IMG/VR virus record: IMGVR_UViG_3300020048_000085
Reading direction: 5' to 3' (one strand)
DNA length: 64,000 bases
Source of the DNA: a virus
A program made the position numbers and the translations under genes. The notes under the pieces were generated by a model that was given only the letters and a program-made list of their open reading frames with translations, did not search any database and was not told the DNA's origin. Below, piece after piece: positions 4,549 through 63,858 of the stretch. Positions within the stretch are counted from its first letter, which is position 1. Each line of letters begins with the position of its first letter.

Positions 4549-4907
4549 TTTTTATTCTCTAATTTTTCATAAATTGAAGCTCCATATTTAGTATTGAATA
4601 TATCTTGTTTAGAAACAAAATAATCACCACTTGTAAATAAATAATCCAATCTAATATATTGAGCTAAGACTATTGATTTTTTAGATCCAGTCATCAAACT
4701 ATATCTTTTAGCAACATCAAACTCTGTAGTAAAAAATGTACCACTCTTAAATTTACCAGTATAAATAATCTTGTTAAAATTGTTTTTATTTGTACCATGA
4801 TATAAATAGATATAATAATTACCATCAATAACAATTTTATCTATACCACGTTTATTTATATTATCTAATAACATATCACTAATATAATCTTCAAATATCT
4901 TAATCAC
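4545..4907 (-). CDS. FKxFE-family protein (MIKIFEDY...) with a YHGT motif
   Basis: ATGA overlap with the downstream gene. LYHGTNKNNF resembles the H-G-[ST] nicotinamide-pocket motif of H-Y-E class ARTs and Tpt1/KptA enzymes. This is weak evidence. Confidence 0.4.
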   Translation of the reverse strand: MIKIFEDYISDMLLDNINKRGIDKIVIDGNYYIYLYHGTNKNNFNKIIYTGKFKSGTFFTTEFDVAKRYSLMTGSKKSIVLAQYIRLDYLFTSGDYFVSKQDIFNTKYGASIYEKLENKK

Positions 4908-5809
4908 ATGAAACTCTTTTTTTTAATTAATATATCAACATTTGATAAATAACCACTCTTAATATGAACATTACCATTATCTTCATATAATATATCTTCA
5001 TTCTCATATTCAAAATCAAAAATATATAAGTCATAATCATCTCTTGCTGCAGGTAAATTAATAAAATTATTATTTTTGCTTAAATACAAGTTATCATAAT
5101 CATATCCAATAACTAATTTTTCAATTTCACCATTTCTATTATCAAGTGGTATTATATTATCAACTAAACCAATATTTTTTATATTATTTGATTTTTTATA
5201 TCCTCTCCAATACAAACAATAACCATGATTTATAATTTTTATCTTATAATTTATAATACTATCAATCCAAGCATCATTTTTTTCAATTTTAATACCATCT
5301 TGAACATATATTTCACCAAAAATTTCCTTTATTTTTGGTATATATTCTTTAAAAAAACTAGGTAAATTTATTCTAGAATGATTAAAATGACCACCATCAC
5401 TATCAAACCAACCACAATGTTTCAAATGTTCAACTCGTTCTTTATTTATTATAAACTTATTAGTATATTTACGTATATTTGGAATCTTATTTGTTTTGAT
5501 TTGCTCTTCAAATTCTTGTAATCTTATCTTTTTTATTGAACCATAGCCTACCTCATTTGACGGATATGTAATTGGATTTATTTTAAACTTATCACTTAAT
5601 TTATCACCATCCAATTCCAATTTAAAAATAGAAACAGGTGAATCACCAATATAATAAGACATATTCTTATTTCTAGTTGTAGAAATATTTGAGAATTTAT
5701 ATGAACTCAACGAATTAGTACTCAATATATAATCACATTTCTCCAAATCAAAAATATGATATAATTTTCCTAATTTTTTACCTTCAAATAATTTAAAATT
5801 TGTAACCAT
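4904..5809 (-). CDS. FKxFE-family protein (MVTNFKLFEG...), 301 aa, function unknown
   Basis: It has the N-terminal family motif and an ATGA overlap with 4545..4907. A TATATATA-like element lies upstream of its start. Confidence 0.5.
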   Translation of the reverse strand: MVTNFKLFEGKKLGKLYHIFDLEKCDYILSTNSLSSYKFSNISTTRNKNMSYYIGDSPVSIFKLELDGDKLSDKFKINPITYPSNEVGYGSIKKIRLQEFEEQIKTNKIPNIRKYTNKFIINKERVEHLKHCGWFDSDGGHFNHSRINLPSFFKEYIPKIKEIFGEIYVQDGIKIEKNDAWIDSIINYKIKIINHGYCLYWRGYKKSNNIKNIGLVDNIIPLDNRNGEIEKLVIGYDYDNLYLSKNNNFINLPAARDDYDLYIFDFEYENEDILYEDNGNVHIKSGYLSNVDILIKKKSFM

Positions 5810-5877: not shown

Positions 5878-8800
5878 GTGGACAATAAAAGTTTTTTATT
5901 CTTTAATAAAGAAGGGTATCCTCACAACTTCACATACGACACCAACACAGAAAGTTGGAATGGTAAAATAATATTTGACGAAAATTCTGATCAAACATTC
6001 AAAACTCAAAGTTTATATATTTTTGAAAGTGTTGAACCGATAACTTTTGATATTGATGCAGATTTAATAGAAATGAATTATCATAATAATAGTGGAATTA
6101 CCATTGTTTCTGATACAACGTACACAAATCAAGAAATTACAAACATAATAAAAACAAACGAATCTAGTGATTTTTATTCAAAATGGGTATATGGATTAGA
6201 TTTTCATAAGAAATTTCCAATAGGAACTGTAGTATATTTATCTGGTGTAACAGGAACAACATCCACAGATTTTAATGTTGATAATTATTTTACAGTTTTA
6301 GCAGTAAAAAAGAACGCATTTCTAATAGTAACTGAAACAAGTAATGATATATTTAACTTTAGTATATTATCTGGCTACACTAGCTCTCTGAATATGATAT
6401 CAATTAATGATTATAATAGAGATTTATCAACAAATAATACATTAATACAAAACTTATACCCAAATAAAAAGTTTTCAATCATAGATTCAATATCAAATGA
6501 TTCAATAGTAACTGTTAAACAATCTGGTATAACAACATCATATTTAAATGAGATTAAAATAGATGATGAAATAGATAAAATTTTTACATTATCTCTACAA
6601 CTTTTTACTCAAAAACCTATTTTATTACAAAATAATATAATATTATATTCAGACACAATTACAACTGGAACACTTAATGTTGGCAAATATGCTTATTTAT
6701 TATCACCAGAAATAATATACACAAACACTGGTCAAGATATAAGCAAAAAAACTGTTACATTTGAAGATGAACTAGGTAATCAATTATTTGGTGGAATTGA
6801 ATTTACTATAGATTCATTAATCACAGAATCTGTATTAGGCACTAAAGATTTAATATTTAAAACTTTCTATGATGAATCTAAAGTTAAATATAGATCATAT
6901 AGTGTTATAAGTAACACAACAAAATGGAACACAATTCAATATGATAATCAATTAGATATTAAAATTGGAGATATTATATCACTAAGCGGAGTAACAACAA
7001 GCGGAAACACTGGTGCTACTTACTTAATGAATAATAGAGAATTTAGTATAATAGATGTTATTTATGATCCAATTAAAAATACAACTATGTTATTTGTATC
7101 TGGTTATATTATAGATGAAAATAATTCTGCATATATAATAACTAAAAAATTACAATCTAATCAAATAAAAAGTGTAAATTTTAGTTCAAGTGGTGATATA
7201 TCACTATTTACTGGCAATACAAATAATGCATATTGTTATTCAACTTCAAATATATTAAATTACTCACAATCTTATATTAGTGGAAATACAAATAATATAT
7301 CATATGATACTATCACAGCATTTTTAAAAAAATATAAAAATGTTTTAAATACATATGGTATAGATGCTTATTATACATCAAGAAATAATACTGATTATTT
7401 ATCTGTTGAAAGTCTATATGGTGCAAAATATAATTATTTTTCAGTATCTGGTTATACAAATGATGTTAAAATAGTAGATAATTTTGATTTAAGTGTTAAT
7501 GGAACAACAAACAAATATGATATTATAATAAATGAAAAATTAATAAATGAAAAAACAAATAAATCAGACACTGGATTATATAAACCTGATGCACATTCTG
7601 AGATTGTTTTAAATTTACAAAGTGATAATGATAGATTTGGTTTTAAATTAACATTAAATAGTATAGAATATAGTATAGATTACTCAGTTGATAGTCAAAC
7701 CACAATTAATAACTTTATAAATATATACTATGACATTATGTATAGTAATGGTTATAATATTTATAGCGGTTATACTTCTGAATATAGTGGTTACACTCTA
7801 AATATACAATCAGATATCGATATTTGGAATTTAGAAATAATAACAAATATATTATCAACATATAAAATAATTGAAAATCAAAGAAATAAATCAATATTAC
7901 TTTCAGGTAATGAATTAAAAACAACAGCAGATTTATTCAACTTAGAATTATCAACAGGTATGTTATTGAAAATAACTGGTAGTACATATAACACTAACAA
8001 CAAAGAATATAATATCATATCATTAACTGAAAATAACATAACATTATCATACCAAGGTGTATTCACAAGTGATATTAACATCATAATCACTGGAACAACA
8101 AGAGAGTTCATTAGAAAACCTAGAGGTGATTATAATAGAGATGTATATCTTAATGTTTCTTGGAAAAAACCATATGAAAATAATATAGATGAATCAATAT
8201 TTTTTTATGATATATCAGGTGATCAATTAACACCTTATAATAATATTGAAAATTTAAGATATACAGGACCAACACCATTAATAAATTTAAATGAAAATAA
8301 TATTGTTATACTAAATAACGAAGCTAATAATAAAATATCAGAGGTTAATAATCCAAAAGCACAACAAACAATATTTAATGAACTCAATTTTAAATTAGAG
8401 CAATTAGATTCATCTCTTGCTTATGATTATATACCAGAACCATTAGAAATATTTTTCGGTTACAATTCAACTGAAGAAGGCTTTAACACAAAAACAATAA
8501 ATATTAAAAAACTAATAAAATCAGAAAATAACAATAATTATTTTTCGATTAGTGGATATACAAATCCAATATCATCAATATCATTAATTAATTTTACATT
8601 AATAGATAATATTATAAATATATCAGCACCAATTAATTTTAATTTTAAAAACTATTTTGAAATAGGACAACTTATAAAATTAGAATTTATTGATCAAAAT
8701 GAATATAAACAATTAATACAAGAAAATATTAACATATATAAAATTTCAGATATATCAAGAAATAAAATATATATTGACACAGAATATACATATGAAAATG

Positions 8801-12485: not shown

Positions 12486-13388
12486 ATGTTTAAAGAAGGA
12501 AAAGAATATAAAATAAATAGTAAATACATAAAAGTATTTGGTCCTAAAATCAATGAAGAACAACAAATAGATCCAAATATAATACCAAATTTTCCTATAA
12601 ATAAACCAGTTAAATTTGATGTTGAGTTGATGAAAAAAGCAATTAAATATGGTTTAGTTATACTACTCTCATATCGTGGTGAAGATGATAAATGGCGTGG
12701 TGGTAGAGAAAGAACAGTTCAACCAATGGTACTAGGTTTAAATCTTAACACTAAGAATATGTTGTTGAGGGGATTTCACCTAGAGGGTTGGTCTGTATCT
12801 CAAAGAGCAGAAACAAAAAAAGTATGGAGATTATTTAAAACAGATAATATTATATCAATGACATTCACTGGAAATTTTTTCCGTATGCCACCAGTTTCCT
12901 ACAAGATGAACGATAGAATTATGACAGAGAAGATTTTAGCAAAGGCTGATTTTAATGATATAAGAAGAAACCAGAACACTTTGTTGAAAGGTGGACAAAT
13001 TCAAGCAGAAGAAGAAACAACTATCTCAAAAGAATCCGGAGGTGTAGTTAGCATTGAGATATCTAACTCTAATAGTCAAATCGATTTGAGATATCCATCT
13101 AAGAATTTACTTATAAATAAAAATAATTATAATCCAACTAGATTTTCTAAAGATTCTAGTACGCTTTCTATGAAATTTTCAGTTATGAAAAGTATGTTTG
13201 GAAATAAATATCTTGTCATTGTTGGTGCAATTGGTACTATTAATAGACAAGTTAAAGTATACGAAGGTAAAGTATTATTAGGTAATTATAGATGCATAAA
13301 ATCATTCTTAGGTTCAGATTTAGCTAACAATAAAATTGCTGATGGTAAGAATATTTTTGATTTGTATGTATTCAATAGAAAATTATAA
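12486..13388 (+). CDS. Hypothetical protein (300 aa)
   Basis: ORF only; no motifs recognised. Confidence 0.45.
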   Translation: MFKEGKEYKINSKYIKVFGPKINEEQQIDPNIIPNFPINKPVKFDVELMKKAIKYGLVILLSYRGEDDKWRGGRERTVQPMVLGLNLNTKNMLLRGFHLEGWSVSQRAETKKVWRLFKTDNIISMTFTGNFFRMPPVSYKMNDRIMTEKILAKADFNDIRRNQNTLLKGGQIQAEEETTISKESGGVVSIEISNSNSQIDLRYPSKNLLINKNNYNPTRFSKDSSTLSMKFSVMKSMFGNKYLVIVGAIGTINRQVKVYEGKVLLGNYRCIKSFLGSDLANNKIADGKNIFDLYVFNRKL

Positions 13389-16624: not shown

Positions 16625-17239
16625 TTATAAATTAAATTTATTTGCATCAAATAAATATGAATATTCTTTTTTTATTCTATAATGTATTTTCTCATCTTTA
16701 AATATTTTAATAAACTCAGAAGTATGCATTTCAATAAACACCTTTTGAAAATTATAATCAGTATTATAACTAAAATAATTAAAATTAGATATATCAGCAT
16801 TATTTTCTAATAAATATATAGCAACATCCCAATAATTATTTAATGCTGATGTCATTAGTGGTGATACATTACTATCATTTGATATATCTATATTTGCGCC
16901 ATTCTCAACCAACAATTTAACTATATCTAAATATCCATTATGAGCTGCTACATATAATGGAGTTGCATTAATACTATTGAAACTATTCACATTAGCATGA
17001 TATTTAATCATCAATTTAACTAATTTGATATCAGCAATATATACAGATAATGATAACATATTACCATAACAATTATTGTCATCATATATATTTGGATTAG
17101 CTCCATTTTTTAATAAATATTCAACTTTTTTTAAATTTGGTTTATTTAAACTAGCCACACTATTAATAAAATATAATAGATAGTCAATTAAATATTTAGT
17201 TTTATCTATATATTTTTCAAATTGCTTAATATATTTCAT
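16625..17239 (-). CDS. Ankyrin-repeat protein that is also a member of the FKxFE/KKFNL family (MKYIKQFEKY ... ANKFNL)
   Basis: It has at least three canonical ANK repeats, for example TPLYVAAHNGYLDIVKLLVENGANIDISNDSNVSPLMTSALNNYWDVAIYLLENNADI. Confidence 0.7.
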   Translation of the reverse strand: MKYIKQFEKYIDKTKYLIDYLLYFINSVASLNKPNLKKVEYLLKNGANPNIYDDNNCYGNMLSLSVYIADIKLVKLMIKYHANVNSFNSINATPLYVAAHNGYLDIVKLLVENGANIDISNDSNVSPLMTSALNNYWDVAIYLLENNADISNFNYFSYNTDYNFQKVFIEMHTSEFIKIFKDEKIHYRIKKEYSYLFDANKFNL

Positions 17240-17583
17240 AGATTGAATTTCTTTAAGTTTTTATTTATTTCTAATTCTTCTAATGTCTTTCCAGTTGCAA
17301 CAACATCAGAATATTTAAAACTTTTTATTCCACAATTATTTTTTTTGTCAATGAAAAACATTTTTAAATCATCTGGAATATTATCATATTTAACATAAAT
17401 TCTATACCATTGGTTTGATGGTTTTGCATAATCATCAAGTAAAAAACTATCAATTATTCCAATTGTATTATTTATAAAATTTCTCAAATCAATTAATATT
17501 TCACTCGGATAATTCGTTAATATATAATCACCAACAGAAAATTCTGGTATCATATTTTCAAATATTTTAAATTGTGTTATCAT
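17236..17583 (-). CDS. FKxFE/KKFNL family paralog (MITQFKIFEN ... LKKFNL)
   Basis: Family motifs and ATGA overlaps. Confidence 0.6.
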   Translation of the reverse strand: MITQFKIFENMIPEFSVGDYILTNYPSEILIDLRNFINNTIGIIDSFLLDDYAKPSNQWYRIYVKYDNIPDDLKMFFIDKKNNCGIKSFKYSDVVATGKTLEELEINKNLKKFNL

Positions 17584-18005
17584 ATATTAAATTTTTTTGA
17601 ATTTGTAATATATTTTGGTGTTTTATTTATAGCACGTTTAAATACATAAAATACATATTTAGTTATTGGATCACCAATATTATCTATTCTTGCATTATCT
17701 AAAATATATTTTATTTTATCATATAATAATATATCTTTTTCAAATTCTACGATTATTAATTCAATAGCATATTTTTTTACTTCATTGCGTATTCTATCGT
17801 CTATTTTATTATTTCCTTTTTTCCATGTGTTTGAACTGTAATATAAATTATATAATATAGAAAATATATAACTAAATTCTTCTGGTACCTTAAATATATT
17901 TTGAATAAATGATGTATCTTTTTTATACATTCTATCATAATAATTTAAATAATAATCAACCATAGATTGATCATATTTTTCAAATATTTTAAATTGTGTT
18001 ATCAT
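17580..18005 (-). CDS. FKxFE family paralog (MITQFKIFEK ... SKKFNI)
   Basis: Family motifs and ATGA overlaps. Confidence 0.6.
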   Translation of the reverse strand: MITQFKIFEKYDQSMVDYYLNYYDRMYKKDTSFIQNIFKVPEEFSYIFSILYNLYYSSNTWKKGNNKIDDRIRNEVKKYAIELIIVEFEKDILLYDKIKYILDNARIDNIGDPITKYVFYVFKRAINKTPKYITNSKKFNI

Positions 18006-18436
18006 AAATTAAATTTTTTAGCGTTCTCAATTAAAATCAACTTGTTTATTATATCTTTTTTTCTAGGTGGAATATAACCATAAATTGTAAATGGTGAATT
18101 AACATCAACTGAGTGAATAATATGTTCATCATTTTTTAAAATTAAATCTAATGATACAAACTCTTTTACTCTTTTTTTAGCTGTTCCTGTATAACCAATA
18201 CCACATCGTTCAACTTTACTAATAATACCATTATGTTTATTTTCATAATCAACAAGTACCTTTTTAATATTATTAAAAGAATATTTACTATAAAATTTAA
18301 CATTAGTACCAGGAATCAATAAATCAGTTAGAAATTTTTTAATTTTTGTATAACTACCATTATAATATTCTAATAATGTATTTAACATAAATGTTATTTC
18401 TTCTTGTGTATCAAATGAATCAAATTTAGTAATCAT
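18002..18436 (-). CDS. FKxFE/KKFNL family paralog (MITKFDSFDT ... AKKFNL)
   Basis: Family motifs and ATGA overlap. Confidence 0.6.
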   Translation of the reverse strand: MITKFDSFDTQEEITFMLNTLLEYYNGSYTKIKKFLTDLLIPGTNVKFYSKYSFNNIKKVLVDYENKHNGIISKVERCGIGYTGTAKKRVKEFVSLDLILKNDEHIIHSVDVNSPFTIYGYIPPRKKDIINKLILIENAKKFNL

Positions 18437-18442
18437 ATAATT

Positions 18443-18826
18443 TTATTTTTTTCTTAAATATGAAAAAACAACATCAAAAAATATTAGTTTAATACAAAAT
18501 GCTATTATAACCCATAAGAATGAAAAATTTAATACTATTATAATAGAAGCAATAATCATTAATAATTCAGATAAAAACCAAAATAAATGCCACGCATCAG
18601 TAAAAATAACAAATATAGTAGTACTACCTAAAAATTTTTCACCACTATGTGGATCATTATTTTTATATTTATTTAATGAACCTAATCCTTGCTCCCAAAA
18701 ATTTGGATTTAAATGATATTTCAAATATAATTTAGATTTATAAAATAAATTAGGAGATGATGATAAATCAGTAATTGATTTTGCAACTCCAGATAGGAAC
18801 AATAGTATTATAATTAATATTATCAT
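18443..18826 (-). CDS. Predicted small integral membrane protein (at least 3 hydrophobic helices)
   Basis: MIILIIILLFLSGVAKS... followed by a long hydrophobic C-terminal stretch. It is embedded in the paralog array. Confidence 0.4.
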   Translation of the reverse strand: MIILIIILLFLSGVAKSITDLSSSPNLFYKSKLYLKYHLNPNFWEQGLGSLNKYKNNDPHSGEKFLGSTTIFVIFTDAWHLFWFLSELLMIIASIIIVLNFSFLWVIIAFCIKLIFFDVVFSYLRKK

Positions 18827-18828
18827 AT

Positions 18829-19248
18829 TTATAAATTGAATTTTTTTGTTTCTTTATTTATATTTATTTCATCTATGATATCTTTAATATCATCAGGAAT
18901 AATACCATAAATATTCATTGGAGAATTTGTGTCTACATCATGTTTATATCTTATTCCTTTTAATTTTATTGTTAAAAAAATATAGTTAAATTCTTTATTA
19001 AAACCATAACCAAATCCCCTCACAACACCTTTATGTTGTTTATTTGAGTGCATGAAATAATTTAATCCTTTAATATCTTCTGTGCATTTTTTACATTCGA
19101 ATTTAATAACATTATTTTTAATTTCAAGTAATTTAAATATAAAATCACTTATAGATTCATTATCACCATTAAAATAACCAATAATATCATTTATTGTTAA
19201 TGTTACTTTATTTCCTGTATTTTCAAATAATTTGAATTGAGTTATCAT
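18829..19248 (-). CDS. FKxFE/KKFNL family paralog (MITQFKLFEN ... TKKFNL)
   Basis: Family motifs. The element ttatatatac lies immediately upstream of its ATG on the minus strand. Confidence 0.6.
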   Translation of the reverse strand: MITQFKLFENTGNKVTLTINDIIGYFNGDNESISDFIFKLLEIKNNVIKFECKKCTEDIKGLNYFMHSNKQHKGVVRGFGYGFNKEFNYIFLTIKLKGIRYKHDVDTNSPMNIYGIIPDDIKDIIDEININKETKKFNL

Positions 19249-19302
19249 ACAGGTATATATAATTATTTAAAATTATTTTTTAATGTTTAATTTAATGAAT
19301 AA

Positions 19303-20322
19303 TTAAAATAATTCCTTTAAAATATGTGTTCTTGATGCATAATTATATGCAACTTTTTCATTTTTTATAAAATCTTTTTTATTATTATATTTAGATGCGA
19401 CTTCTAAACATAATTCTTTATTCCAAAATAATCTACCATTTTTCATATGTGAACACACATCATCTATCCAATTACTTCTAGAACATCTTAAATATGATCC
19501 AGTTGAATTTTCATAAAAATCTTTTTTACAATTATATTTTAACGCTTCTTCTTTACATTTATTTTTTGTCCATTTTATAATACTACCACCTACACCTCCG
19601 CCTTTTATCTCATTTAATATATTATAATTGTTATTTCTATATTCTTCAATTTTCTCATCTTCCATTTTTTTAATAATATCAATATCTAAATAATCTGTCA
19701 ATTGTTTAAATATATAATTTACTTTTGTTTTGTGTTTATATTTGTATACTTGACTTTTTTTGTTGGTTTTGTGATAATAATTTCTAATATTTATATCATA
19801 TGTTAACCCTATATACACAGAATTATCATCAAATTCATAAATATATAAGCATCTTCTTTTTAAATTTCCACGATATATCATATGTTCACAAATTTCATCT
19901 ATCCATTTATTTTTGTGTGATATACTATATGCTGACATAGAATTAAATTTAAAATCGCTTTTATTATCATATTTTAATGCTTCTTCTTTACATCGTTCAA
20001 AATTCCAATAGTTTTTACATTTTTGATATTCTATCATATGCTCACAAATTTCATCCAACCAGTTATTTTTTCTTGAATATTCATAATATTTTTTGGAATT
20101 TTTTTGAAAATCAGTTCTTTTTGAATATTTATTTGCTTCATTTTTACACTCTATTTTAGAATATATTTTACAATTTTTATGCTTCATGTGTGAGCAAACA
20201 TCATCTAAAATATGATTGAAATATGCATAATTATATGCATAATTATCATTATTCATAAAATCTTGTTTAAATTTATATTTTAGTGCTATTTCTTGACATA
20301 ATTCTTTTGTGTATTTTATCAT
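19303..20322 (-). CDS. GIY-YIG endonuclease with tandem Cys/His-containing repeats of about 40 aa (W..E.C..HM / YxKCKE..LKY modules); the start is placed at the internal Met (MIKYTKELCQ), although the longest ORF extends to 20358
   Basis: GIY-YIG core YIYEFDDNSVYIGLTYDINIRNYYH, flanked by repeats such as KNKWIDEICEHM. The 20322 start is chosen because an RHH ORF occupies 20325..20498 in another frame, mirroring the paralogous cassette at 61809..63182. Confidence 0.55.
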   Translation of the reverse strand: MIKYTKELCQEIALKYKFKQDFMNNDNYAYNYAYFNHILDDVCSHMKHKNCKIYSKIECKNEANKYSKRTDFQKNSKKYYEYSRKNNWLDEICEHMIEYQKCKNYWNFERCKEEALKYDNKSDFKFNSMSAYSISHKNKWIDEICEHMIYRGNLKRRCLYIYEFDDNSVYIGLTYDINIRNYYHKTNKKSQVYKYKHKTKVNYIFKQLTDYLDIDIIKKMEDEKIEEYRNNNYNILNEIKGGGVGGSIIKWTKNKCKEEALKYNCKKDFYENSTGSYLRCSRSNWIDDVCSHMKNGRLFWNKELCLEVASKYNNKKDFIKNEKVAYNYASRTHILKELF

Positions 20323-20324
20323 AA

Positions 20325-20498
20325 TTATAATTTTATTTTTGATGTATTTATTCCACATTTATTAAAATAATCTAGCATTGCAAATTCTATATATTTTGAC
20401 TTGTTTGTAGTACTATCTAAAATCAAATCGTGTAATTCTGGAGACATAGAAATAGAAATTCTTATTTTTCTATCTTCTTCTTTTTTTAATGTTTTCAT
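20325..20498 (-). CDS. Small ribbon-helix-helix (CopG-like) protein immediately upstream of the GIY-YIG gene
   Basis: A 57-codon ORF (MKTLKKEEDRKIRISISMSPELHDLILDSTTNKSKYIEF...KIKL) with a beta-strand/helix-helix pattern. It is a paralog of the ORF at 63024..63182 and is too short for the ORF track. Confidence 0.35.
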   Translation of the reverse strand: MKTLKKEEDRKIRISISMSPELHDLILDSTTNKSKYIEFAMLDYFNKCGINTSKIKL

Positions 20499-20615
20499 AA
20501 TTTTCTTTTTATTGTATATATAAATATTTTAAAGTCAAAAGGTGTAATTATATAGTAATTTTAAAAATATTCAAACATTTTCTATAAAAAATTATATTAT
20601 ATAATAAATTATAAT

Positions 20616-20623
20616 TATCTTTG
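20616..20623 (+). promoter_or_regulatory. TATCTTTG promoter -7-like motif abutting the RHH gene start
   Basis: An exact copy of the recurring 9-mer TATCTTTGT. It matches the Bacteroidetes sigma-A -7 consensus TAnnTTTG. Confidence 0.35.
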
Positions 20624-20624
20624 T

Positions 20625-20789
20625 ATGAGGAATAGAATTAAAAATGAAGAAAAAAATGTTAAAGTTGGAATTACAATACATCCAGATTTATCTAAAATAT
20701 TAGATGAATATTCAAAAGAAAATAAAATAACCAAATCTAAAGTCATTCAAAATATTATGAATGAGCATTTTAAAAATAAAAATAAATAA
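20625..20789 (+). CDS. Small ribbon-helix-helix (CopG-like) protein, divergent from the minus-strand RHH and immediately upstream of sbcDC
   Basis: MRNRIKNEEKNVKVGITIHPDLSKILDEYSKENKITKSKVIQNIM... A paralog is at 63290..63481. It is under 60 aa and so absent from the track. Confidence 0.4.
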   Translation: MRNRIKNEEKNVKVGITIHPDLSKILDEYSKENKITKSKVIQNIMNEHFKNKNK

Positions 20790-20792
20790 ATA

Positions 20793-23700
20793 ATGAAAAT
20801 TGTACACTTGGCTGATGTTCATATCAGAAATATTGAAAGACATGATGAATACAATACTATTTTTAGTAAAATAGTAAATAAATTAAAAGAATTAAAACCA
20901 GATAGAATAGTTATAGTTGGTGATTTGTTTGAAAGTTATATTGAAATTTCAAATGAAGCACAAATTATTGCAGGATTTTTTTTGACTGAATTATCTAAAA
21001 TTGCTAAAGTTATAATTACTCGTGGTAATCATGATATTCGTAAAAAGAATATAAACAGAGTAGATAGTATAGAAACAGTTATAAAATTGCTCAATAATAA
21101 AAATATTAATTACTATGATAAAACTGGTTTTTATGATGATGAAGATGATTTTGTTTGGGTTGTATATGAACACGCAGACAAATTAAATAATCCTTGGTCA
21201 AATAAGAAAAAAGAAGATGATAAAATATATATTGGTTTATTTCATGATCCAATTTTAAACGTCACGTCTAATACAGGTAGAATATTTAATGATTCTGCTA
21301 AATATAAAAATATTAATTATTTTAAAAATAATAATTTTTTGATGATTGGTGATATCCATAAACGCCAATTTTTAAGAGAAAATAAATCTGCTGCATATTG
21401 TGGTTCAACAATTCAACAAACATTTGGAGAAACAGTTGAAAAACATGGTTTCCTATTATGGGATATAAAATCATCTACTGATTTTGATATTACTGAATGT
21501 GATATTAAAAATGAATATACATTAATAAATTTATTTGTTGATGAAAATTCTGATTATGATAACTTAAATTTATCTGCAGATAATATTGGATTATATCCTG
21601 AATTTAAAGTACATTGGAAAGATTATTCTTCTAATATTAACACAGTAAATGAAAAAAAGATACGAGATTATATTAAAGAAAAATTTAATACAACTCAAGT
21701 AATTTTTGATAAAACTTATTTATATACAGATGTTTTATCATCTAAAATGCTTTCAGAATCTATTGATTTGACAGATGCTCAAACACAAAGAGAAATATTT
21801 GAAGAATATTTAAAAGAGCAAAAATATAAAACAGATGATATTGAATCAATACTTAATATTGATGATATTATTAATAGTAGAATTCAATTAACAGAACAAT
21901 TAAAAAATAATGAATGGAGTATTGATAAATTTTGGTTCAGCAATTTTAAATCTTATGGTGATGATAATGTTGTTGATTGGAGTGATATTTCAGGTTTAGT
22001 ACAAATTCATGGAGAAAATCAAGAAGGTAAAACTACAATTCTTGATGCTCTTATGTATATACTATATGGTAAAACAACCACAACATTAAGTCCAGAAAAA
22101 TTTGGAGATAATAGATATATAAACAATAAAAGGGATTTAAATAGTGTTAGTGGTGGAGCAATAATTAGTACTAATGGTAATAAATTTGTTATTCAAAGAA
22201 GCACAGAAAGAGTTTGGAATAAAAATAAAACTGCTTTAAGTGGTTGTCCAACTGTGTTAGATTTTTATAAGAGTGATGTTATTTGTGAAGAAAATAAGAT
22301 AACTGGTGAGCTTAAAAGTACAACACAAAAAGAATTAGATATAATATTAGGTGATTTGAAAGATTTCATTAGACTATCATTCACAAATGCTGATAATTTA
22401 AATGATTTATTATCTGAAACTAGAAGTGTGTTTATGGATAGTATTATTAGAGATGCTGGATATGATATATTTGAGACTAAATTAAATGAATTTAAGGAAT
22501 ATAAGAAAGAATTAACAGAAGAAAAATTAATAATTAATATTCAAGATTCTGAATTAACAATAGCTGATTTGAAATCTGATATTGATAGTAAGAGAGAAGA
22601 TATAAAGATTAATGATATTCAAATAATAGAATTTGTTGTTGATTTAAAAACAAATAATAAAAGTAGAGATAATTTAAATAAAAATTTAAATAATATTGAT
22701 TCTTCTATGATTAATTTTGATGAGGATTTGAATTTAAATTCAATTGAAAATTACAAAGATAAAATTGAAGAAGCGAAAATACAAACAACTATTTTAAATA
22801 GAGAAATTGATAAATTACCAGATAATTTTGATCCAACTAAATTAAATGAGTATAAAATTAAGTTAAAACAAACAAACAATAAAATATCTGAAAGGAAAGA
22901 TGAAATATCAAATCTTAGAAGATCATTAACAGAATCAGACAATAAAATAGATAAGGTAGATTCTAAAATAGTAGAATTGAAACAATCTGAAATTAAAAAG
23001 ATTTCTTTGAAAATTAGTGATAATGAATTAAATATTGAAGTTATTAAGAACAAAAAAGAGAATATAATAAAAGATGAATTAAAACAATTAACATCATCTA
23101 TTCAAAAAATTGAATTGGATAAAAGTGAAATAACATCTCAAATGAAACTATTACAACGAGATGGTGTAAATTCTAAAAAGTCGAATGATGAATTAGATAA
23201 AGAAATTGAAACCTTTAGAGATTCAAAATCTTGTCCAAGTTGTGGTCGTGATTATGATAAAAATGATCCAAAATATTCAGAGCACATATTACATTTAGAA
23301 GAAAAAATTAAAAGTCTTGAAAATAAAAAAGATGCTAATGATTTAATAATTCAAAAAAGTCTAAGTGAATATAATAAATTGAAATTGTCTATATCTGATT
23401 TTGATGATAAAATATCAAAATTAAAAGATAATAAAGATGATATAATAAAAGGAGTTTACTCAGAAGATATTCTAACTAAATTGAAAGTTGTTGGTAGTAG
23501 TAACCAATTAAAACAAGATAATATTGATTTAAATATATTAATAAATAATATAGAAAATGATAAATTTGAAAATTTAGATTCATTAAAAGAAAATATTGAA
23601 AAAGGTAATAAATTAAAAGAAAATATTGAAAAAAGTAAATCAGATACATTATTAGTCATAAAAAATATTGAATCAGAATTAAAAAATTTTGATATAGATG

Positions 23701-24542
23701 GTATTGAAAATGATATATCTATTGAAGAAACAAACAGAGATAATTTTGAATTAAGAAATAAAAAAGTTTCAAAGAAAGATAATATACAATTAACTATTGA
23801 AAATTTTAATTTAAAAATTAAAGATTTAAATTCAGAAATTGATAAATATCAATCACACAAAATTAAAATAGAAGAAAATAAACTAATACAAGATGATATT
23901 GATGAAATTGATAAAAAGATAACATCTATTAATGATGAAATTAAAAAATTAGAACAAGATAATATCAACAAGGAAAAGGATATGCTTCTTAAGCAAAATG
24001 AGATTCATTTAATTGTAACTAAAATTGAAAAGTATTTAGAACAAAAGAAAAAAGAAGAATTGCTGAAAGAATATCAGAAATGTATATCAAGAGATGGTTT
24101 ACCAACATTCTTATTGAAAAAATCTATTCATCTAATCAATAAAGAAATGTCTGAATTGTTAGTTAATGTTGATTTTACTTTATTTTTTGATGAAAATTTA
24201 ATATTAAGACTTAGTGCAAATGATAGATTGGATGTTAGTCAAAATGCAATTGAGAGTTCAGGTAAAGAAAGAACATTCTGTGCATTAGCACTTAAAATTT
24301 CATTAAGACAAATAAATGTAAAATCAAAACCAACATTTATAGTATTAGATGAAATAATGGGGAAATTAATTGATGGTAAAAAAACCAAATCAATAGAGCA
24401 ATTTGCAAATTTCTTAGATGATTTAAAACACAAAGTAAATAAAATAATAATAATTGAACATGTGCATAATATAAATTATGATGCATTAATTGAAGTTGAA
24501 AAAGATGAAAATTTAATTTCACATTTGGAATTAAATTATTAA
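20793..24542 (+). CDS. sbcCD: Single-polypeptide SbcD(Mre11)-SbcC(Rad50) fusion, a DNA double-strand-break processing nuclease/ATPase
   Basis: N-terminal calcineurin-like phosphoesterase motifs (DVH, VGDLF, RGNHD). These are followed by the Rad50/SbcC Walker A GENQEGKTT, a long coiled coil with a CPSCGR zinc hook, and a C-terminal Walker B/D-loop FIVLDEIMGKL. Confidence 0.8.
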   Translation: MKIVHLADVHIRNIERHDEYNTIFSKIVNKLKELKPDRIVIVGDLFESYIEISNEAQIIAGFFLTELSKIAKVIITRGNHDIRKKNINRVDSIETVIKLLNNKNINYYDKTGFYDDEDDFVWVVYEHADKLNNPWSNKKKEDDKIYIGLFHDPILNVTSNTGRIFNDSAKYKNINYFKNNNFLMIGDIHKRQFLRENKSAAYCGSTIQQTFGETVEKHGFLLWDIKSSTDFDITECDIKNEYTLINLFVDENSDYDNLNLSADNIGLYPEFKVHWKDYSSNINTVNEKKIRDYIKEKFNTTQVIFDKTYLYTDVLSSKMLSESIDLTDAQTQREIFEEYLKEQKYKTDDIESILNIDDIINSRIQLTEQLKNNEWSIDKFWFSNFKSYGDDNVVDWSDISGLVQIHGENQEGKTTILDALMYILYGKTTTTLSPEKFGDNRYINNKRDLNSVSGGAIISTNGNKFVIQRSTERVWNKNKTALSGCPTVLDFYKSDVICEENKITGELKSTTQKELDIILGDLKDFIRLSFTNADNLNDLLSETRSVFMDSIIRDAGYDIFETKLNEFKEYKKELTEEKLIINIQDSELTIADLKSDIDSKREDIKINDIQIIEFVVDLKTNNKSRDNLNKNLNNIDSSMINFDEDLNLNSIENYKDKIEEAKIQTTILNREIDKLPDNFDPTKLNEYKIKLKQTNNKISERKDEISNLRRSLTESDNKIDKVDSKIVELKQSEIKKISLKISDNELNIEVIKNKKENIIKDELKQLTSSIQKIELDKSEITSQMKLLQRDGVNSKKSNDELDKEIETFRDSKSCPSCGRDYDKNDPKYSEHILHLEEKIKSLENKKDANDLIIQKSLSEYNKLKLSISDFDDKISKLKDNKDDIIKGVYSEDILTKLKVVGSSNQLKQDNIDLNILINNIENDKFENLDSLKENIEKGNKLKENIEKSKSDTLLVIKNIESELKNFDIDGIENDISIEETNRDNFELRNKKVSKKDNIQLTIENFNLKIKDLNSEIDKYQSHKIKIEENKLIQDDIDEIDKKITSINDEIKKLEQDNINKEKDMLLKQNEIHLIVTKIEKYLEQKKKEELLKEYQKCISRDGLPTFLLKKSIHLINKEMSELLVNVDFTLFFDENLILRLSANDRLDVSQNAIESSGKERTFCALALKISLRQINVKSKPTFIVLDEIMGKLIDGKKTKSIEQFANFLDDLKHKVNKIIIIEHVHNINYDALIEVEKDENLISHLELNY

Positions 24543-34810: not shown

Positions 34811-36355
34811 TTAAAAATTATTTGAATATATCATTTTTAAATTACCAGAATCATATATTCTATAATATTTTAGTTCTAACATTATTTCATGTTCTGTTTT
34901 ATTAGAATCGTATCCATTTTTAATTAATATGTTTTTCTTGAAATTGAATCTATTATACCTAATATTATCAATTATATAATAATATTCAGGATTGGTAATA
35001 CTATTCAATTCAAATCCAATTTTTTCATATTTATCTATATTGTTTTTTGTTCTATCTATATGAACTATTATTTTATCATGATTATAATTATTAATAAAAT
35101 AATTAAAAAGTGCTGATATACTATCTATTATATTAGTATTAATTTTATTACAAAATCTTAACATCTCATAATTATTATTTTTATCTTTGTTTTTTATCAT
35201 ACCAAATATCATAATACTAACTAATTCATTTTTATAAAAAAGTCCAATTTTTACTTTAGAGCCAATATATCCTTGAATATGATTAGTATTAAGAAAATAT
35301 TTAACTAATTTATCATCAAAAATTTCTTTTATTTCACAATCAGTAATATCAATATTGTTTTCTAGTAAATATAATTTGTTTAATATCAAAGATTTAATCA
35401 AATCTTGTTTATATAACCACTCATCTTCAAAAATATGAATTAATTGTACTCCTTTTTTTTCACATAAATTAGTTTTATTTAAATGATAATTATTTTCTTT
35501 ATATAATTCAGAATGCCAATGTATTCCATTAAACTCAAATGCTAATTTTAAATCAGGTAAATATATATCAATTTCATATGGTTTAGTAATATTCTTAGAA
35601 TTTAATATTATTATACCATTATAATTATCACTAATAAAATTTTTAAGTTGAATTTCAAGTCCTGATATTTGTTTTGATACAGGATTACAAGTTGTACATA
35701 ATATAGTATTACATTTTTTCCTGGCATAAAAAAGAGTATCATTAATTAAATAATTATTATCACAAATATCACAATGAGCTAAATAATTATGATCTATAAC
35801 ATCAATTATATTATTGTCTATTATCATTTGTTCTCTAATTTTTAAATTATATTTTTTTCTAAATTCTTTATGTTGAAATGTGTTTTTTACTCCATATCTT
35901 TCTATATTTGTTTTTTCTATTTTGTTTTTGAATTCATCATATTGAATAGCAAATTCAACATTATATTTTTTTAACATACTAGATTTCATAAGTTCTATAT
36001 TTTGAAGAGGAGTAGCATAACCATATCTTTCTATGTTTGTATTCTTTTGTTTTTCTTTACATTTATCTAATTTAGATGGATATTCTATTCCATATCTTTC
36101 TAAATTTGTTCGTCTCATTTTTTTTAACACATCTTTATTTTGCGTTGTAGCAACGCAACCATATCTTTCTAAATTAGTAATTTTAGCTTTTTCTGCTGAA
36201 CATTTATGACAATAGCATTTTTCTATCATTCCTTTTGTTATTTTAAAATATGTTCTATATTCCATTTCTTTCTCTCTACCACATATATCACAACTAGTAT
36301 TTATAATATAATGACTACCTTTTGTTAATTCTGTTTGTAATTCTGTTAGTATCAT
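34811..36355 (-). CDS. Putative homing-type endonuclease: N-terminal Cys cluster, at least 5 tandem N[IL]ERYG repeats, and a C-terminal Vsr/PD-(D/E)xK-like nuclease fold
   Basis: Repeats TNLERYGC..., TNLERYGIEY..., TNIERYGYAT..., TNIERYGVKN... The C-terminal EIDIYLPDLKLAFEFNGIHWHSE resembles the Vsr FxDGxFWH core. Confidence 0.45.
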   Translation of the reverse strand: MILTELQTELTKGSHYIINTSCDICGREKEMEYRTYFKITKGMIEKCYCHKCSAEKAKITNLERYGCVATTQNKDVLKKMRRTNLERYGIEYPSKLDKCKEKQKNTNIERYGYATPLQNIELMKSSMLKKYNVEFAIQYDEFKNKIEKTNIERYGVKNTFQHKEFRKKYNLKIREQMIIDNNIIDVIDHNYLAHCDICDNNYLINDTLFYARKKCNTILCTTCNPVSKQISGLEIQLKNFISDNYNGIIILNSKNITKPYEIDIYLPDLKLAFEFNGIHWHSELYKENNYHLNKTNLCEKKGVQLIHIFEDEWLYKQDLIKSLILNKLYLLENNIDITDCEIKEIFDDKLVKYFLNTNHIQGYIGSKVKIGLFYKNELVSIMIFGMIKNKDKNNNYEMLRFCNKINTNIIDSISALFNYFINNYNHDKIIVHIDRTKNNIDKYEKIGFELNSITNPEYYYIIDNIRYNRFNFKKNILIKNGYDSNKTEHEIMLELKYYRIYDSGNLKMIYSNNF

Positions 36356-36465
36356 TTGTTTTTATTATTTTTTAAAACATACCTACTATCAAAGAGTATA
36401 TTTTTACTATATATAATTTTTTATATTCTATATTTTAATATATAGATAAAAAGTAATAAAATACA

Positions 36466-44483: not shown

Positions 44484-44507
44484 ATCAAGTATATATAATC
44501 ACTTGAT
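44484..44507 (+). promoter_or_regulatory. Inverted repeat ATCAAGT-N10-ACTTGAT enclosing a TATATATA box upstream of tk; candidate operator/promoter
   Basis: Perfect 7-bp arms with a 10-nt spacer. A direct repeat of TCAAGTATATAT also occurs at 44424-44436. Confidence 0.35.
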
Positions 44508-61787: not shown

Positions 61788-61794
61788 TGAATTA

Positions 61795-61828
61795 AAAAAC
61801 GTGGTGTATTATGCACCACGTTTTTTAT
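61795..61828. terminator. Bidirectional intrinsic terminator between ligA and the convergent GIY-YIG gene
   Basis: Stem aacgtggtg / caccacgtt followed by T6. Confidence 0.6.
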
Positions 61829-63020
61829 ATTTTGGAAAAAATTCATCTAACCAACCATTAATAGAAGAATAATTATATGCACTCCAAACACTTTTTCGAA
61901 ACTCACATCTAGAATTATATTTTTTAGATTCTTTTTCACACAATTCTTTATTATTCCAATATCTAAATATTGTTTTTGTTCTTATTGGATCAAGTAAATG
62001 TTGCCAATCTTTTTTTAGAATTGTAGTATATGCTCCTCCTGAATATTTAATAAAATCTGATAATTTTTCATATTTTTCGACTTCAATTTTACAAGATTCT
62101 ATTGTCCATTTTAAATCATGTGAACCAATTCCACCAGTTTTAACTTCATTTAATAATATCCATCCATTATTTTTATAATCATTAAGAGTTTCACCTTCTA
62201 ATAAAATTGCCAAATCAACATCTATGTAATCTGATTTTATTTTCAAAATAGGTTTCAGATTTGTTTCGTTCATATATTTTTTTACTGAACTTTTATCTTT
62301 TCCTATAATGTGCTGATTATTTCTTCTTTTTATATTTCCAGTTAACCCTACATAACAATGATTATCAGAAAATTCATAAGTATATATTAAACGTTTATAT
62401 TTATTTCCAATTTTCTTCAAATGTGATAATAATTCTAACCAATTTTCTTTATAAATTTTATTGTGTGCTGATACATATTTACTTTTCAACTCCTTTTTTG
62501 TCTCACATTTTAATGCAACTTCTTTACATTTTTCATAAGTCCAATAATTGTTACATTTTACTATCTTCATAGTTTTTGGCATCAATTCACTCCAATTATT
62601 TTTTAATATTTTTTCATATGCTGAACTACACTTACACTTTAATTCTGTGTTAGTTTTACAACTAGATGATATTTCTTTACACTTTTCATATGTCCAATAA
62701 TTTTTAGGTTTTTTATTTTCAAAAAAGTGTGAAAACAATTCTATCCAATTATTTTTCAAAATATTTCTATATGCGGAGCCATACAATAACATAAATTTGG
62801 TTATGCTCTCACATTCTAAAGCGGCATATTTACAATTTTCGTAATCCCAATATCCTTTTGGTTTTTTTCTCGCTATAATATGTGATATTAATTCATTCCA
62901 TTCATTCTTATTAATTGTATAATATGCGGTATAATATTTATTTTTTAATTCATTTTTGCTGGTGCATTACAACGCAGCTTCTTTACATTTCTCATATGTC
63001 CAATAATTTTTAGGTTTCAT
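61809..63020 (-). pseudogene. GIY-YIG endonuclease with tandem YEKCKE..LKC..ELK repeats, interrupted by a single in-frame TAA (plus-strand 62967..62969); the intact ORF is 61809..62792
   Basis: GIY-YIG core LIYTYEFSDNHCYVGLTGNIKRRNNQH. Reading the minus strand from the ATG at 63020 gives MKPKNYWTYEKCKEAAL, then a stop, then CTSKNELKNKYY...; this is in frame with and continuous into the 61809..62792 ORF. The repeat consensus shows a Lys codon at the stop position (AAA changed to TAA). Confidence 0.45.
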
Positions 63021-63023
63021 ATT

Positions 63024-63182
63024 TTACAATTTTATTTTTTTAATTCTATCATCTGCATATTTTTCATTTAAGTCATTATATATCAGCCATTCAATATATT
63101 TTGATTTATTTGAAATTAATTCTATCATTAAGTTATCTAATTCTTTGTTTATAGATATTCTAATATTTGATTTTTTTACCAT
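63024..63182 (-). CDS. Small ribbon-helix-helix protein immediately upstream of the GIY-YIG gene (paralog of 20325..20498)
   Basis: MVKKSNIRISINKELDNLMIELISNKSKYIEWLIYNDL...KIKL. Its stop lies 3 nt before the GIY-YIG start. It is 52 aa and so absent from the ORF track. Confidence 0.35.
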   Translation of the reverse strand: MVKKSNIRISINKELDNLMIELISNKSKYIEWLIYNDLNEKYADDRIKKIKL

Positions 63183-63289
63183 TACCTTTTTTATTGTATA
63201 TATAAATATATAAAAGTTATAAAGTGATTTTTTGGTGATTTTTTATAAACTTTTTTAAAATAAATTTATAATATAAATAAAAATATTAT

Positions 63290-63481
63290 ATGTCAAGACA
63301 TAAACTATCAGATGAAAACAAAAAGCCTAAAATAAGCATAACATTAAATAAAGATTTGGATATTATTTTACAGAATTATATAAAAAATAATGATTTAAAC
63401 CGTTCAAAATATATTGAAAATCTCATAAAGAGTGATATGGAAAAAAGAGGATATAAAATAAAAGAAGATTTTGAGAAATAA
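63290..63481 (+). CDS. Small ribbon-helix-helix (CopG-like) protein, divergent partner of 63024..63182 (paralog of 20625..20789)
   Basis: KISITLNKDLDIILQNYIKNNDLNRSKYIENLI aligns with KVGITIHPDLSKILDEYSKENKITKSKVIQNIM. Confidence 0.4.
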   Translation: MSRHKLSDENKKPKISITLNKDLDIILQNYIKNNDLNRSKYIENLIKSDMEKRGYKIKEDFEK

Positions 63482-63506
63482 GTTTGGTAGATTAAAATAA
63501 TTTTAT

Positions 63507-63514
63507 TATCTTTG
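63507..63514 (+). promoter_or_regulatory. TATCTTTG -7-like promoter element
   Basis: TATCTTTGT lies 22 nt upstream of the ATG at 63538. Confidence 0.35.
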
Positions 63515-63537
63515 TTATACAAAAATAAAGCACAAAT

Positions 63538-63858
63538 ATGGGATGGGGAACAAACTTTAATATGAACTTATATCTTAGTCATATGACATTTGATAGTATT
63601 CAAGATGTAAGAGATAAAATAACTGAAAATGATAATTATATAAATGATGCAAAGCAAAAAATAAAAATGTTTGCATCATCTACTCCTAGTAGTATTGTAC
63701 CAGAAGATTGGAAAGATGAACCAATCAATTGGCTTAATGCTGAAATTGAATCATTAATTGATGAGATGACTGAATCAATCAAAGAAAATGTTTTATTGGA
63801 TCAATACTTTCAATTTTTAGAAAATAAAGAAATTGACAATAATTTAAAAACAGAATAA
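63538..63858 (+). CDS. Hypothetical acidic protein (106 aa)
   Basis: ORF downstream of the promoter motif. Confidence 0.45.
   Translation: MGWGTNFNMNLYLSHMTFDSIQDVRDKITENDNYINDAKQKIKMFASSTPSSIVPEDWKDEPINWLNAEIESLIDEMTESIKENVLLDQYFQFLENKEIDNNLKTE

Follow-up and report, generated by a model that had tools for sequence, protein, structure and literature searches.

In the immI region of phage P22, two small ribbon-helix-helix (RHH) repressors, Mnt and Arc, are encoded divergently (mnt and arc-ant) from a short control region. The arc gene is the first of its operon, the next gene (ant) is an effector that needs only brief expression, and the operator has two subsites separated by about one turn of the helix, each of them bound by one Arc dimer. 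A comparable arrangement was analyzed in a 64,000-nucleotide stretch of the IMG/VR virus record IMGVR_UViG_3300020048_000085 (hereafter the window), which holds two copies of a cassette made up of a divergent pair of tiny RHH genes, RHH-A and RHH-B, and a GIY-YIG endonuclease gene directly behind RHH-A. Related loci in uncultivated phage contigs, designated by L-numbers (L003, L085, and so on), were used for comparison. Our preferred reading, to which a probability of roughly 0.55 is given, is that the pair would act as Arc/Mnt-like autorepressors on back-to-back promoters and so throttle a translationally coupled selfish nuclease, within a cassette that would be modular and horizontally mobile.

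Like P22 immI, the cassette has a divergent RHH pair with one member leading an effector gene, an arrangement found in about 35 cassettes. Its spacers are enriched in 11-bp-phased direct repeats, which are candidate operators. Unlike immI, the effector is a selfish nuclease and not an antirepressor, the best Protein Data Bank (PDB) matches of the RHH proteins are SvtR and CopG with no specific Arc or Mnt homology, the huge phage is apparently lytic (no lysogeny genes were looked for), and the cassette is multi-copy and mobile with swappable cargo. The original prediction had likened the layout to a CI/Cro-type bistable switch; this was rejected because the regulators are RHH and not helix-turn-helix proteins, and they occur in two to several copies per genome beside nucleases (again with no search made for lysogeny functions). 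Nothing indicates bistability, and the layout is more simply read as negative autoregulation or temporal throttling. Highly variable cargo with a conserved regulator is also a feature of anti-CRISPR operons, in which a strong phage promoter drives small cargo genes and a dedicated small Aca repressor that damps the operon; however, Aca lies downstream of the cargo, is usually a helix-turn-helix protein, and is single with no divergent partner, and the cargo is an inhibitor and not a nuclease.

Together with P22 immI, the closest layout is that of the IS605 system, in which a tiny Arc RHH protein occupies a bidirectional promoter region, repressing TnpB and neighboring genes from divergent tnpB/tnpA promoters, and in which Arc genes of the same IS605-associated clade also adjoin homing endonucleases (bioRxiv 10.64898/2026.09.24.754181, Moon et al.). 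This 2026 preprint partly anticipates the repressor-nuclease idea, and the cassettes resemble it in placing an RHH gene at the predicted bidirectional promoter of a selfish nuclease, with TnpB itself carried by one cassette (L149). The cassettes differ in having two divergent paralogous RHH genes with the nuclease coupled directly downstream of one of them, in residing in phage genomes and apparently not in transposons with TnpA and defined ends (no search was aimed at TnpA or transposon ends), and in carrying GIY-YIG enzymes and not TnpB within the window. In phage T4, homing endonucleases (I-TevI and others) are kept at tight, low expression by operator-promoter overlap and translational control, and insertion of a homing endonuclease can displace host promoters (PMC2988022). 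The principle of holding selfish phage nucleases at low expression is shared, but in T4 the endonuclease represses itself or RNA hairpins act, whereas the cassette encodes separate, dedicated RHH proteins that serve many nuclease families. The seg and mob genes of T-even phages and the repeat-domain homing endonuclease genes (HEGs) of ICP1-like phages are intergenic, show presence/absence polymorphism, and occur in several copies or families per genome (PMC2988022, PMC10448857). The cassette nucleases of the window are likewise intergenic and polymorphic and have “beads on a string” repeats that presumably bind DNA, but those genes have not been reported with dedicated repressor genes. Conceptually, the cassette is a variation on two known themes, namely selfish nucleases under autorepression by RHH proteins and homing endonuclease cassettes that are free-standing.

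In copy 1, the leftward operon is led by RHH-A1 (20325..20498, minus strand; 57 aa), whose stop lies 2 nt before the ATG of a 339-aa repeat-flanked GIY-YIG endonuclease (cargo 1; 19303..20322, minus strand). This open reading frame (ORF) matches phrog_20046 at 4e-57, and its ATG at 20322 finds support in an identical 339-aa protein from the database and in orthologs with the same start. Across a 126-bp spacer, RHH-B1 (20625..20789, plus strand; 54 aa) leads the rightward operon and ends 3 nt before a fused sbcD-sbcC gene (sbcDC, 20793-24542). All of these positions and distances agree with the original prediction.

Copy 2, which had been placed at 61809..63481, has the same layout and paralogs of all three genes, but its endonuclease frame extends further than had been thought. 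The frame (cargo 2; 61809..63020, minus strand; 403 codons) starts at an ATG at 63020, 3 nt past the stop of RHH-A2 (63024..63182, minus strand; 52 aa), and is broken by one in-frame TAA at 62967-62969 (codon 18); the ORF listed at 61809-62792 covers only the downstream 327 codons because of this stop. The ortholog in L097 is intact (451 aa) and has Glu at the corresponding position. The catalytic core of cargo 2 is intact downstream of the TAA and could be translated from a Met at 62792, in which case it would be uncoupled from RHH-A2. The TAA may reflect early decay of the nuclease while RHH-A2 and RHH-B2 (63290..63481, plus strand; 63 aa, leading the rightward operon) stay under selection. 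The spacer between these two genes is 107 bp. Cargo 1 and cargo 2 are 37% identical (E = 5e-52) and the two RHH-A proteins 40%, and RHH-B is 24-26% identical to RHH-A; all four small proteins fall into a single alignable family of two subtypes, the first helix of B being 4-5 residues longer. Further copies of the endonuclease, RHH-A, or RHH-B were not found in the rest of the window.

The predicted small RHH ORFs proved to be conserved. Identities to their orthologs from other contigs are 66-88%, with ratios of nonsynonymous to synonymous substitution rates (dN/dS) of 0.08-0.27; RHH-A1 orthologs are 77-81% identical (dN/dS 0.08-0.19), RHH-B1 orthologs 67-74% (0.10-0.26), and the L097 orthologs of RHH-A2 and RHH-B2 81% (0.27) and 87-88% (0.15), respectively. 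A database search with the small RHH proteins returned 335 relatives. Chance ORFs were ruled out by the dN/dS values together with hundreds of homologs, and on these sequence comparisons the small ORFs are true RHH genes that evolve under purifying selection. A profile built from 56 family sequences matched SvtR (2kel, E = 2.6e-5), CopG (4e-3), an RHH antitoxin, and NikR, with alignments that span the full strand-helix-helix length. RHH-B1 matched the “Arc-like repressor” family phrog_582 at 1e-5 and Pfam RHH_3 at 0.005, the latter below threshold (17.2 vs 21.6 bits), and relatives of the RHH proteins carry precomputed RHH_3 or RepB-RCR_reg hits. An AlphaFold2 (AF2) monomer of RHH-A1 was predicted with beta-alpha-alpha topology at a mean predicted local distance difference test score (pLDDT) of 83. 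A search for the RHH family in 185,579 bacterial and archaeal genomes yielded a single weak hit, which did not lie in a cassette. A tblastn search of RHH-B2 against GenBank phages gave no match, and the cassette was therefore not traced to any cultured phage.

The repeated arrangement was also found elsewhere, as had been expected of it, and since it recurs in dozens of independent contigs the three-gene order lies far beyond chance. A single layout is common to about 35 cassettes from uncultivated phage contigs, RHH-B and RHH-A being divergent across a spacer of usually 90-150 bp. At all ten RHH-B homolog loci that were sampled, RHH-A is divergent and a single nuclease-like gene comes after it. 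An IMG/VR scan, for which an alignment of type 3/4 RHH-B (one RHH-B subtype) was used as the query, gave 44 loci, 33 of which show the RHH pair by hidden Markov model, with more recognized by inspection and a few carrying RHH-B only. The small ORFs are thus not unconserved and the arrangement is not unique, and the cassette as originally described stands. In all 17 cassettes that were measured, the cargo starts between −5 and +3 nt from the RHH-A stop, and no Shine-Dalgarno-like sequence was found ahead of the cargo gene in any of the 17. Because the start falls within a few nucleotides of RHH-A and lacks its own Shine-Dalgarno sequence, the nuclease would be made only through translational coupling.

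The conserved three-gene layout beside a nuclease upholds the proposed link to a mobile endonuclease, but not the idea that the pair is specific to the GIY-YIG enzyme, as the nuclease is swappable cargo. Cargo families comprise repeat-flanked GIY-YIG, Seg-like GIY-YIG/NUMOD3, LAGLIDADG, DUF7487 (annotated “homing endonuclease” in PHROGs), EndoVII/HNH-like, DUF723/CapR, and one TnpB. RHH-A and RHH-B identities covary across cassettes (r = 0.86) and define four clades, within which the cargo differs. L106 and L113 have RHH proteins that are 94% and 85% identical, different cargo, and no shared flanks, and such similar pairs in unrelated contexts imply that the RHH pair itself moves horizontally. 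The TnpB (Cas12f1-like) lies directly behind RHH-A in L149 (1417-2736), and more TnpB genes occur within a few kilobases of cassettes in L110 (5063-6307) and L097 (from 6664), which ties these loci to the Arc-IS605 theme. As a separate observation, the window encodes a DUF7487 protein (34811-36355, minus strand; 514 aa) that matches a PHROG “homing endonuclease” at 1e-98 and has a PD-(D/E)xK-like motif; its family serves as RHH-A cargo in other phages, but here it is solitary, accompanied by the promoter motif at 36407 but not by an RHH gene.

A small RHH gene located upstream of, and coupled to, a potentially toxic nuclease could also be read as a toxin-antitoxin-like or exclusion module, in which RHH-A is an antitoxin that binds the nuclease or the unit serves in phage-phage exclusion or defense. 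RHH-B2 has a weak match to a MazE-antitoxin NCBIfam model (0.0027, far below the cut-off), and homing endonucleases cause marker exclusion between co-infecting phages (PMC2988022). Even so, this explanation, which was one of the analogies of the original prediction, is very hard to credit. RHH-A is only 46-57 aa across cassettes, too short for a toxin-binding tail, and one RHH-A type serves unrelated nucleases, proteins 75-94% identical preceding different nuclease folds. The second, divergent RHH gene would be left unexplained. Annotation of the cassette with PADLOC and NCBIfam for defense or toxin-antitoxin systems gave nothing credible, the PADLOC output being limited to three weak partial matches to unrelated families (ST_Kinase, pAgo, and SspB).

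The control region was examined for promoters and repeated elements. The motif TTATATATA[C/G] sits 11-15 nt upstream of RHH-A in both copies, as the TTATATATAC core of P_A1 (20514..20523, minus strand; 15 nt upstream of the RHH-A1 ATG) and, by motif scan, of P_A2 (63196..63205, minus strand), and it is conserved in the cassette spacers examined. Ten sites were found in the window against 3.3 expected (19253, 20514, 31350, 36407, 39843, 44489, 49371, 50636, 58839, and 63196). All ten lie between ORFs of at least 90 aa and eight are 4-51 nt upstream of a same-strand ORF; those at 44489 and 58839 have no ORF of at least 90 aa close downstream. On this distribution, TTATATATA[C/G] is most likely a promoter element of this phage group. 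The motif is also conserved in related IMG/VR contigs, and two of the sites are only 4-5 nt from an ORF start, where leaderless transcripts might result. A consensus scan gave a sigma70-like match at P_A1, TTGACT-16-TACAAT, with the −35-like TTGACT at 20533-20538. The same kind of scan weakly suggests a candidate P_B1 for RHH-B1 and sbcDC (TTCAAA-17-TATATT; 20570..20598, plus strand), and by eye an AAAC(A/C)(A/T)TTT block appears, tentatively, to be common to the spacers of several cassettes. Searches with Rfam and ARAGORN found no non-coding RNA or transfer RNA in the whole window, spacers included.

Between the divergent promoters of copy 1, a direct-repeat scan identified a candidate operator, GTAATT-N5-GTAATT (20544..20560), in an 11-bp register. 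In copy 2, the same scan identified two units of GTGATTTT in the same register (63225..63243), and this candidate is conserved in the L097 ortholog. GC-containing direct repeats numbered 35 in the cassette spacers compared to 4.1 in shuffled sequences, and none of 500 shuffles reached 35. Repeat spacing peaked at 11 bp, with 11 blocks compared to at most two at any other spacing, and 17 control intergenic regions had no block at 11 bp. The peak was replicated in 18 further spacers (six blocks compared to 0.44 expected), three of which (L118, L133, and L144) were already in the first set. The repeat sequence varies between RHH clades. Palindromic operators were considered as a common theme and rejected, inverted repeats being rare in the spacers. 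A phasing of one turn is the spacing used by cooperative RHH dimers, and the 11-bp register is therefore suggestive of cooperative RHH dimer binding, which it fits by analogy but does not prove. In several cassettes, one or two lipoprotein-like or signal-peptide genes (one of them DUF4468) lie between RHH-A and RHH-B and split the control region (L094 2862-3416, L121 2233-2904, and L127 1844-2887).

These elements allow a scheme to be outlined. P_A, carrying the phage motif, would transcribe RHH-A and then the nuclease, whose output, arising by translational coupling only, would be proportional to that of its repressor. In the other direction, P_B would transcribe RHH-B and then the neighboring phage operon (sbcDC at copy 1). 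RHH-A and/or RHH-B dimers would bind the 11-bp-phased direct repeats and shut the promoters once enough protein had been made, such that the DNA-cutting enzyme would appear in a brief, low pulse and the phage genes at the flanks would, despite the insertion, still have a functional and regulated promoter. The nuclease would mobilize the unit by homing into cassette-free relatives, and the repressor pair would be the conserved core behind which unrelated nuclease families are exchanged. The reality of the genes, their RHH homology, the conserved layout with its tight coupling, the diversity of cargo, the indels, the promoter motif, and the phased repeats are all observed, whereas DNA binding and repression by the RHH proteins, the assignment of each protein to a promoter, and homing activity are presumed here.

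Alternatively, the RHH proteins might act on DNA targets and not on transcription, either by shielding a resident cleavage site (immunity) or by positioning the nuclease during homing. They are predicted DNA-binding proteins beside site-specific nucleases, the phased repeats lie at the cassette center, and the RHH-A C-terminal tail is conserved (SKIKL or KEIIL). An overlapping translation-restart signal can, however, explain the conservation of the tail; the repeats are located in the promoter region and not at the cassette borders, and one RHH-A type serves nucleases of different folds that presumably have different targets. A role of this kind is accordingly considered improbable.

The original prediction called for insertion/absence polymorphism of a 2.4-kb unit; empty sites were found at both loci, but the unit is smaller, about 1.5-1.7 kb (copy 1, 1.5 kb, corresponding to 19269-20771 relative to the empty site; copy 2, 1.7 kb). 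At the sbcDC locus, the closest relatives (L085-L088; sbcDC 79% identical) are empty, with 116 bp in place of window positions 19269-20771. The full cassette is present in L005 and L006, and L092 and L115 have both RHH genes with a LAGLIDADG-type endonuclease behind RHH-A; between L092 and the GIY-YIG-bearing window, homology stops exactly at the RHH-A stop. Degenerate remnants are found in L090, RHH-B with a truncated endonuclease in L091, and RHH-B only in L089. This locus is a hotspot of insertions and deletions. A second cargo swap at one locus was seen between L104 and L110, and L102 and L110 have cargo that is 82% identical within flanks that are 43-60% identical, a sign that the nuclease spread recently. 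The nearest GenBank relative by sbcDC is LR756501, a 735-kb uncultured phage (44.6%), in which no RHH gene was found at the sbcDC locus. At the ligase locus of copy 2, L097 and L108 carry the cassette, and the closest relatives, L162 (ligase 83% identical) and L163 (76%), are empty.

Several of these alleles, together with other results, weigh against the throttled-nuclease reading. RHH-B persists alone in L089 and L140, and L003 and L004 keep the endonuclease at the sbcDC locus without the RHH pair. Only about 6-8 of 78 sampled loci of the endonuclease family have an RHH pair, about 70 having no adjacent RHH gene; given these loci and L003, nuclease function does not depend on the RHH repressors. 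In copy 2, the nuclease is interrupted, yet its repressors are still under selection. Repeat sequence and position vary by type, the repeats being distal in types 1 and 2 and overlapping the promoter 3′ end in types 3 and 4, and the repeats could have another role. Fold searches with the RHH monomer model found no match. Lastly, synonymous divergence (dS) of the RHH pair at the sbcDC locus equals that of the backbone; because of this and the alleles with RHH-B only, the pair may have been inherited vertically and may serve the phage and not the nuclease.

Vertical inheritance and RHH-B-only alleles argue that the pair belongs to the phage, and would suit an explanation in which it is a resident module controlling operons such as sbcDC. 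Homing endonucleases would then merely use the position behind RHH-A, where insertion is safe and expression assured, and the repressors would neither be part of the selfish element nor have evolved to control it. The persistence of RHH-B1 beside sbcDC without RHH-A in L089 and L091, the endonuclease without a pair in L003, the use of a general phage promoter motif by P_A, and cargo that changes while the pair stays put all favor a resident module. On the other side, an ordinary gene follows RHH-A in only one of about 35 cassettes (L160, in which an A-type RHH gene precedes an uncharacterized 198-aa ORF), coupling is uniformly tight for unrelated nucleases, near-identical pairs occur in unrelated contexts (L106 and L113), at both window loci the entire unit, with its RHH genes, is missing from the closest relatives, and the RHH family is essentially absent from the 185,579 genomes searched. 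On balance, a resident module is judged unlikely. In favor of the pair belonging to the element are its near-exclusive association with nucleases, the lack of the entire unit in the closest relatives, and the occurrence of near-identical pairs in unrelated contexts. An extension of this, put forward tentatively and as a possibility that falls short of even odds, is that the pair, and not the nuclease, is the conserved and selected core of the element and forms a portable two-repressor “docking station” which moves between loci and huge-phage genomes, into which any selfish nuclease (at least six families, even TnpB) plugs by translational coupling, and in which RHH-B takes over the adjacent phage operon; this would be an undescribed class of composite mobile element.

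The nuclease itself was characterized by profile, alignment, and structure prediction. Cargo 2 passes the Pfam GIY-YIG model (24.0 bits against a cut-off of 22.6); cargo 1 has no Pfam hit and is linked to it by their identity. Residues Y160, Y170, R180, E221, and N237 (the catalytic Tyr/Tyr/Arg/Glu/Asn) are invariant across an alignment of 50 family members, and by motif and conserved catalytic residues the cargo genes of both copies are assigned to the GIY-YIG nuclease superfamily. The AF2 model of cargo 1 (mean pLDDT 90.6) has a predicted beta-beta-alpha-alpha-beta-alpha core at residues 156-230 (pLDDT above 90), flanked by five four-helix modules of about 43 aa, three N-terminal and two C-terminal. 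The top five PDB matches from a Foldseek search with the whole endonuclease were UvrC GIY-YIG domains, which were non-significant (E ~3.5-4.7; template modeling score 0.51-0.56); no Foldseek match to the helical repeat modules was found, and a profile match to T4 EndoII was weak (E = 0.02). The Cys/His repeats described around the GIY-YIG core are real (~43 aa, where 40 aa had been given), and most members of the family keep their Cys/His positions, the majority of which copy 2 has lost.

The enzyme had been described as unusual, but it is not rare. The phrog_20046-type endonuclease is a large family (413 database hits, 240 IMG/VR loci) with members in Vibrio schizo-T4, Rhizobium, and Burkholderia phages and with multiple copies in many contigs. 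A “beads on a string” repeat architecture has already been described for other phage homing endonucleases (PMC10448857), so the repeats represent a new module type and not a new principle; the module, a four-helix unit of ~43 aa that lies on either side of the GIY-YIG core, differs from the CapR/DUF723 zinc fingers. Between L003 and the window, the endonucleases are 82% identical, compared to 58% for sbcDC, which suggests recent lateral spread of the nuclease. These identities, the alleles at both loci, and the multi-copy contigs show the polymorphism and lateral spread expected of homing endonucleases, and the cargo may cleave cassette-free alleles site-specifically and home into them. Alignments of L003 intergenic DNA to the empty site or to the window spacer, which bear on deletion versus independent insertion, were no better than those of shuffled AT-rich sequence. 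L003 also has two genes that are absent from the window (where the corresponding positions are 24533-24540 and 19275-19302, respectively), namely a 300-aa DUF723 gene (zinc-finger HEG-type; 1205-2107) just downstream of sbcDC and a 174-aa gene (7044-7568) between the endonuclease and a paralog array.

How phages tolerate dozens of DNA-cutting parasites is understood only for a few T4 enzymes. If the preferred reading is true, the cassette would be a general alternative, a dedicated and transferable pair of tiny repressors for many unrelated nucleases, and would extend the recent finding that Arc restrains an IS605 nuclease to phage homing endonucleases; were the “docking station” also true, regulation would be the shared chassis of a composite mobile element. 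Each cassette offers testable material in the form of two proteins of 52-63 aa, a spacer of ~110-125 bp, 11-bp repeats, and natural empty-site alleles, and the system could yield compact, orthogonal repressor/operator pairs. The cassette would also aid annotation of huge-phage genomes, where such 50-aa genes are usually missed.

Further features adjoin the cassettes in the window, which has a GC content of ~21% (very AT-rich) and encodes large phage-type genes, including the fused sbcD-sbcC (1249 aa), an NAD-dependent ligase, a ClpB-like ATPase, an SPFH protein, and the DUF7487 nuclease. A terminator scan identified a hairpin with a perfect 16-bp stem (61793..61827) at the point where the ligase gene and cargo 2 converge; it is the sole terminator-like site in two ~2-kb regions scanned around the cassettes and is likely a bidirectional terminator that marks the left edge of cassette 2. 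Downstream of RHH-B2, a 106-aa gene (63538..63858, plus strand) occurs together with the cassette in L097 (3813-4115; 77% nucleotide identity over 63450-63828) and is absent together with it in L162, and a similar gene of ~100 aa follows RHH-B in L098 and L099; L108 has a 227-aa gene instead. It may be a fourth, facultative member of cassette 2, its membership being uncertain. Cassette 1 is adjoined by a tandem array of paralogous genes of ~115-145 aa (17236-19248, minus strand), the products of which begin with MITQFK(I/L)FE and end with KKFN(L/I), and which are also present at differing copy number in L003 and L085. Two ORFs of 300-301 aa (4904-5809, minus strand, and 12486-13388, plus strand) have no Pfam or PHROG match and are similar in size to the 300-aa ORFs of L003 and L005.

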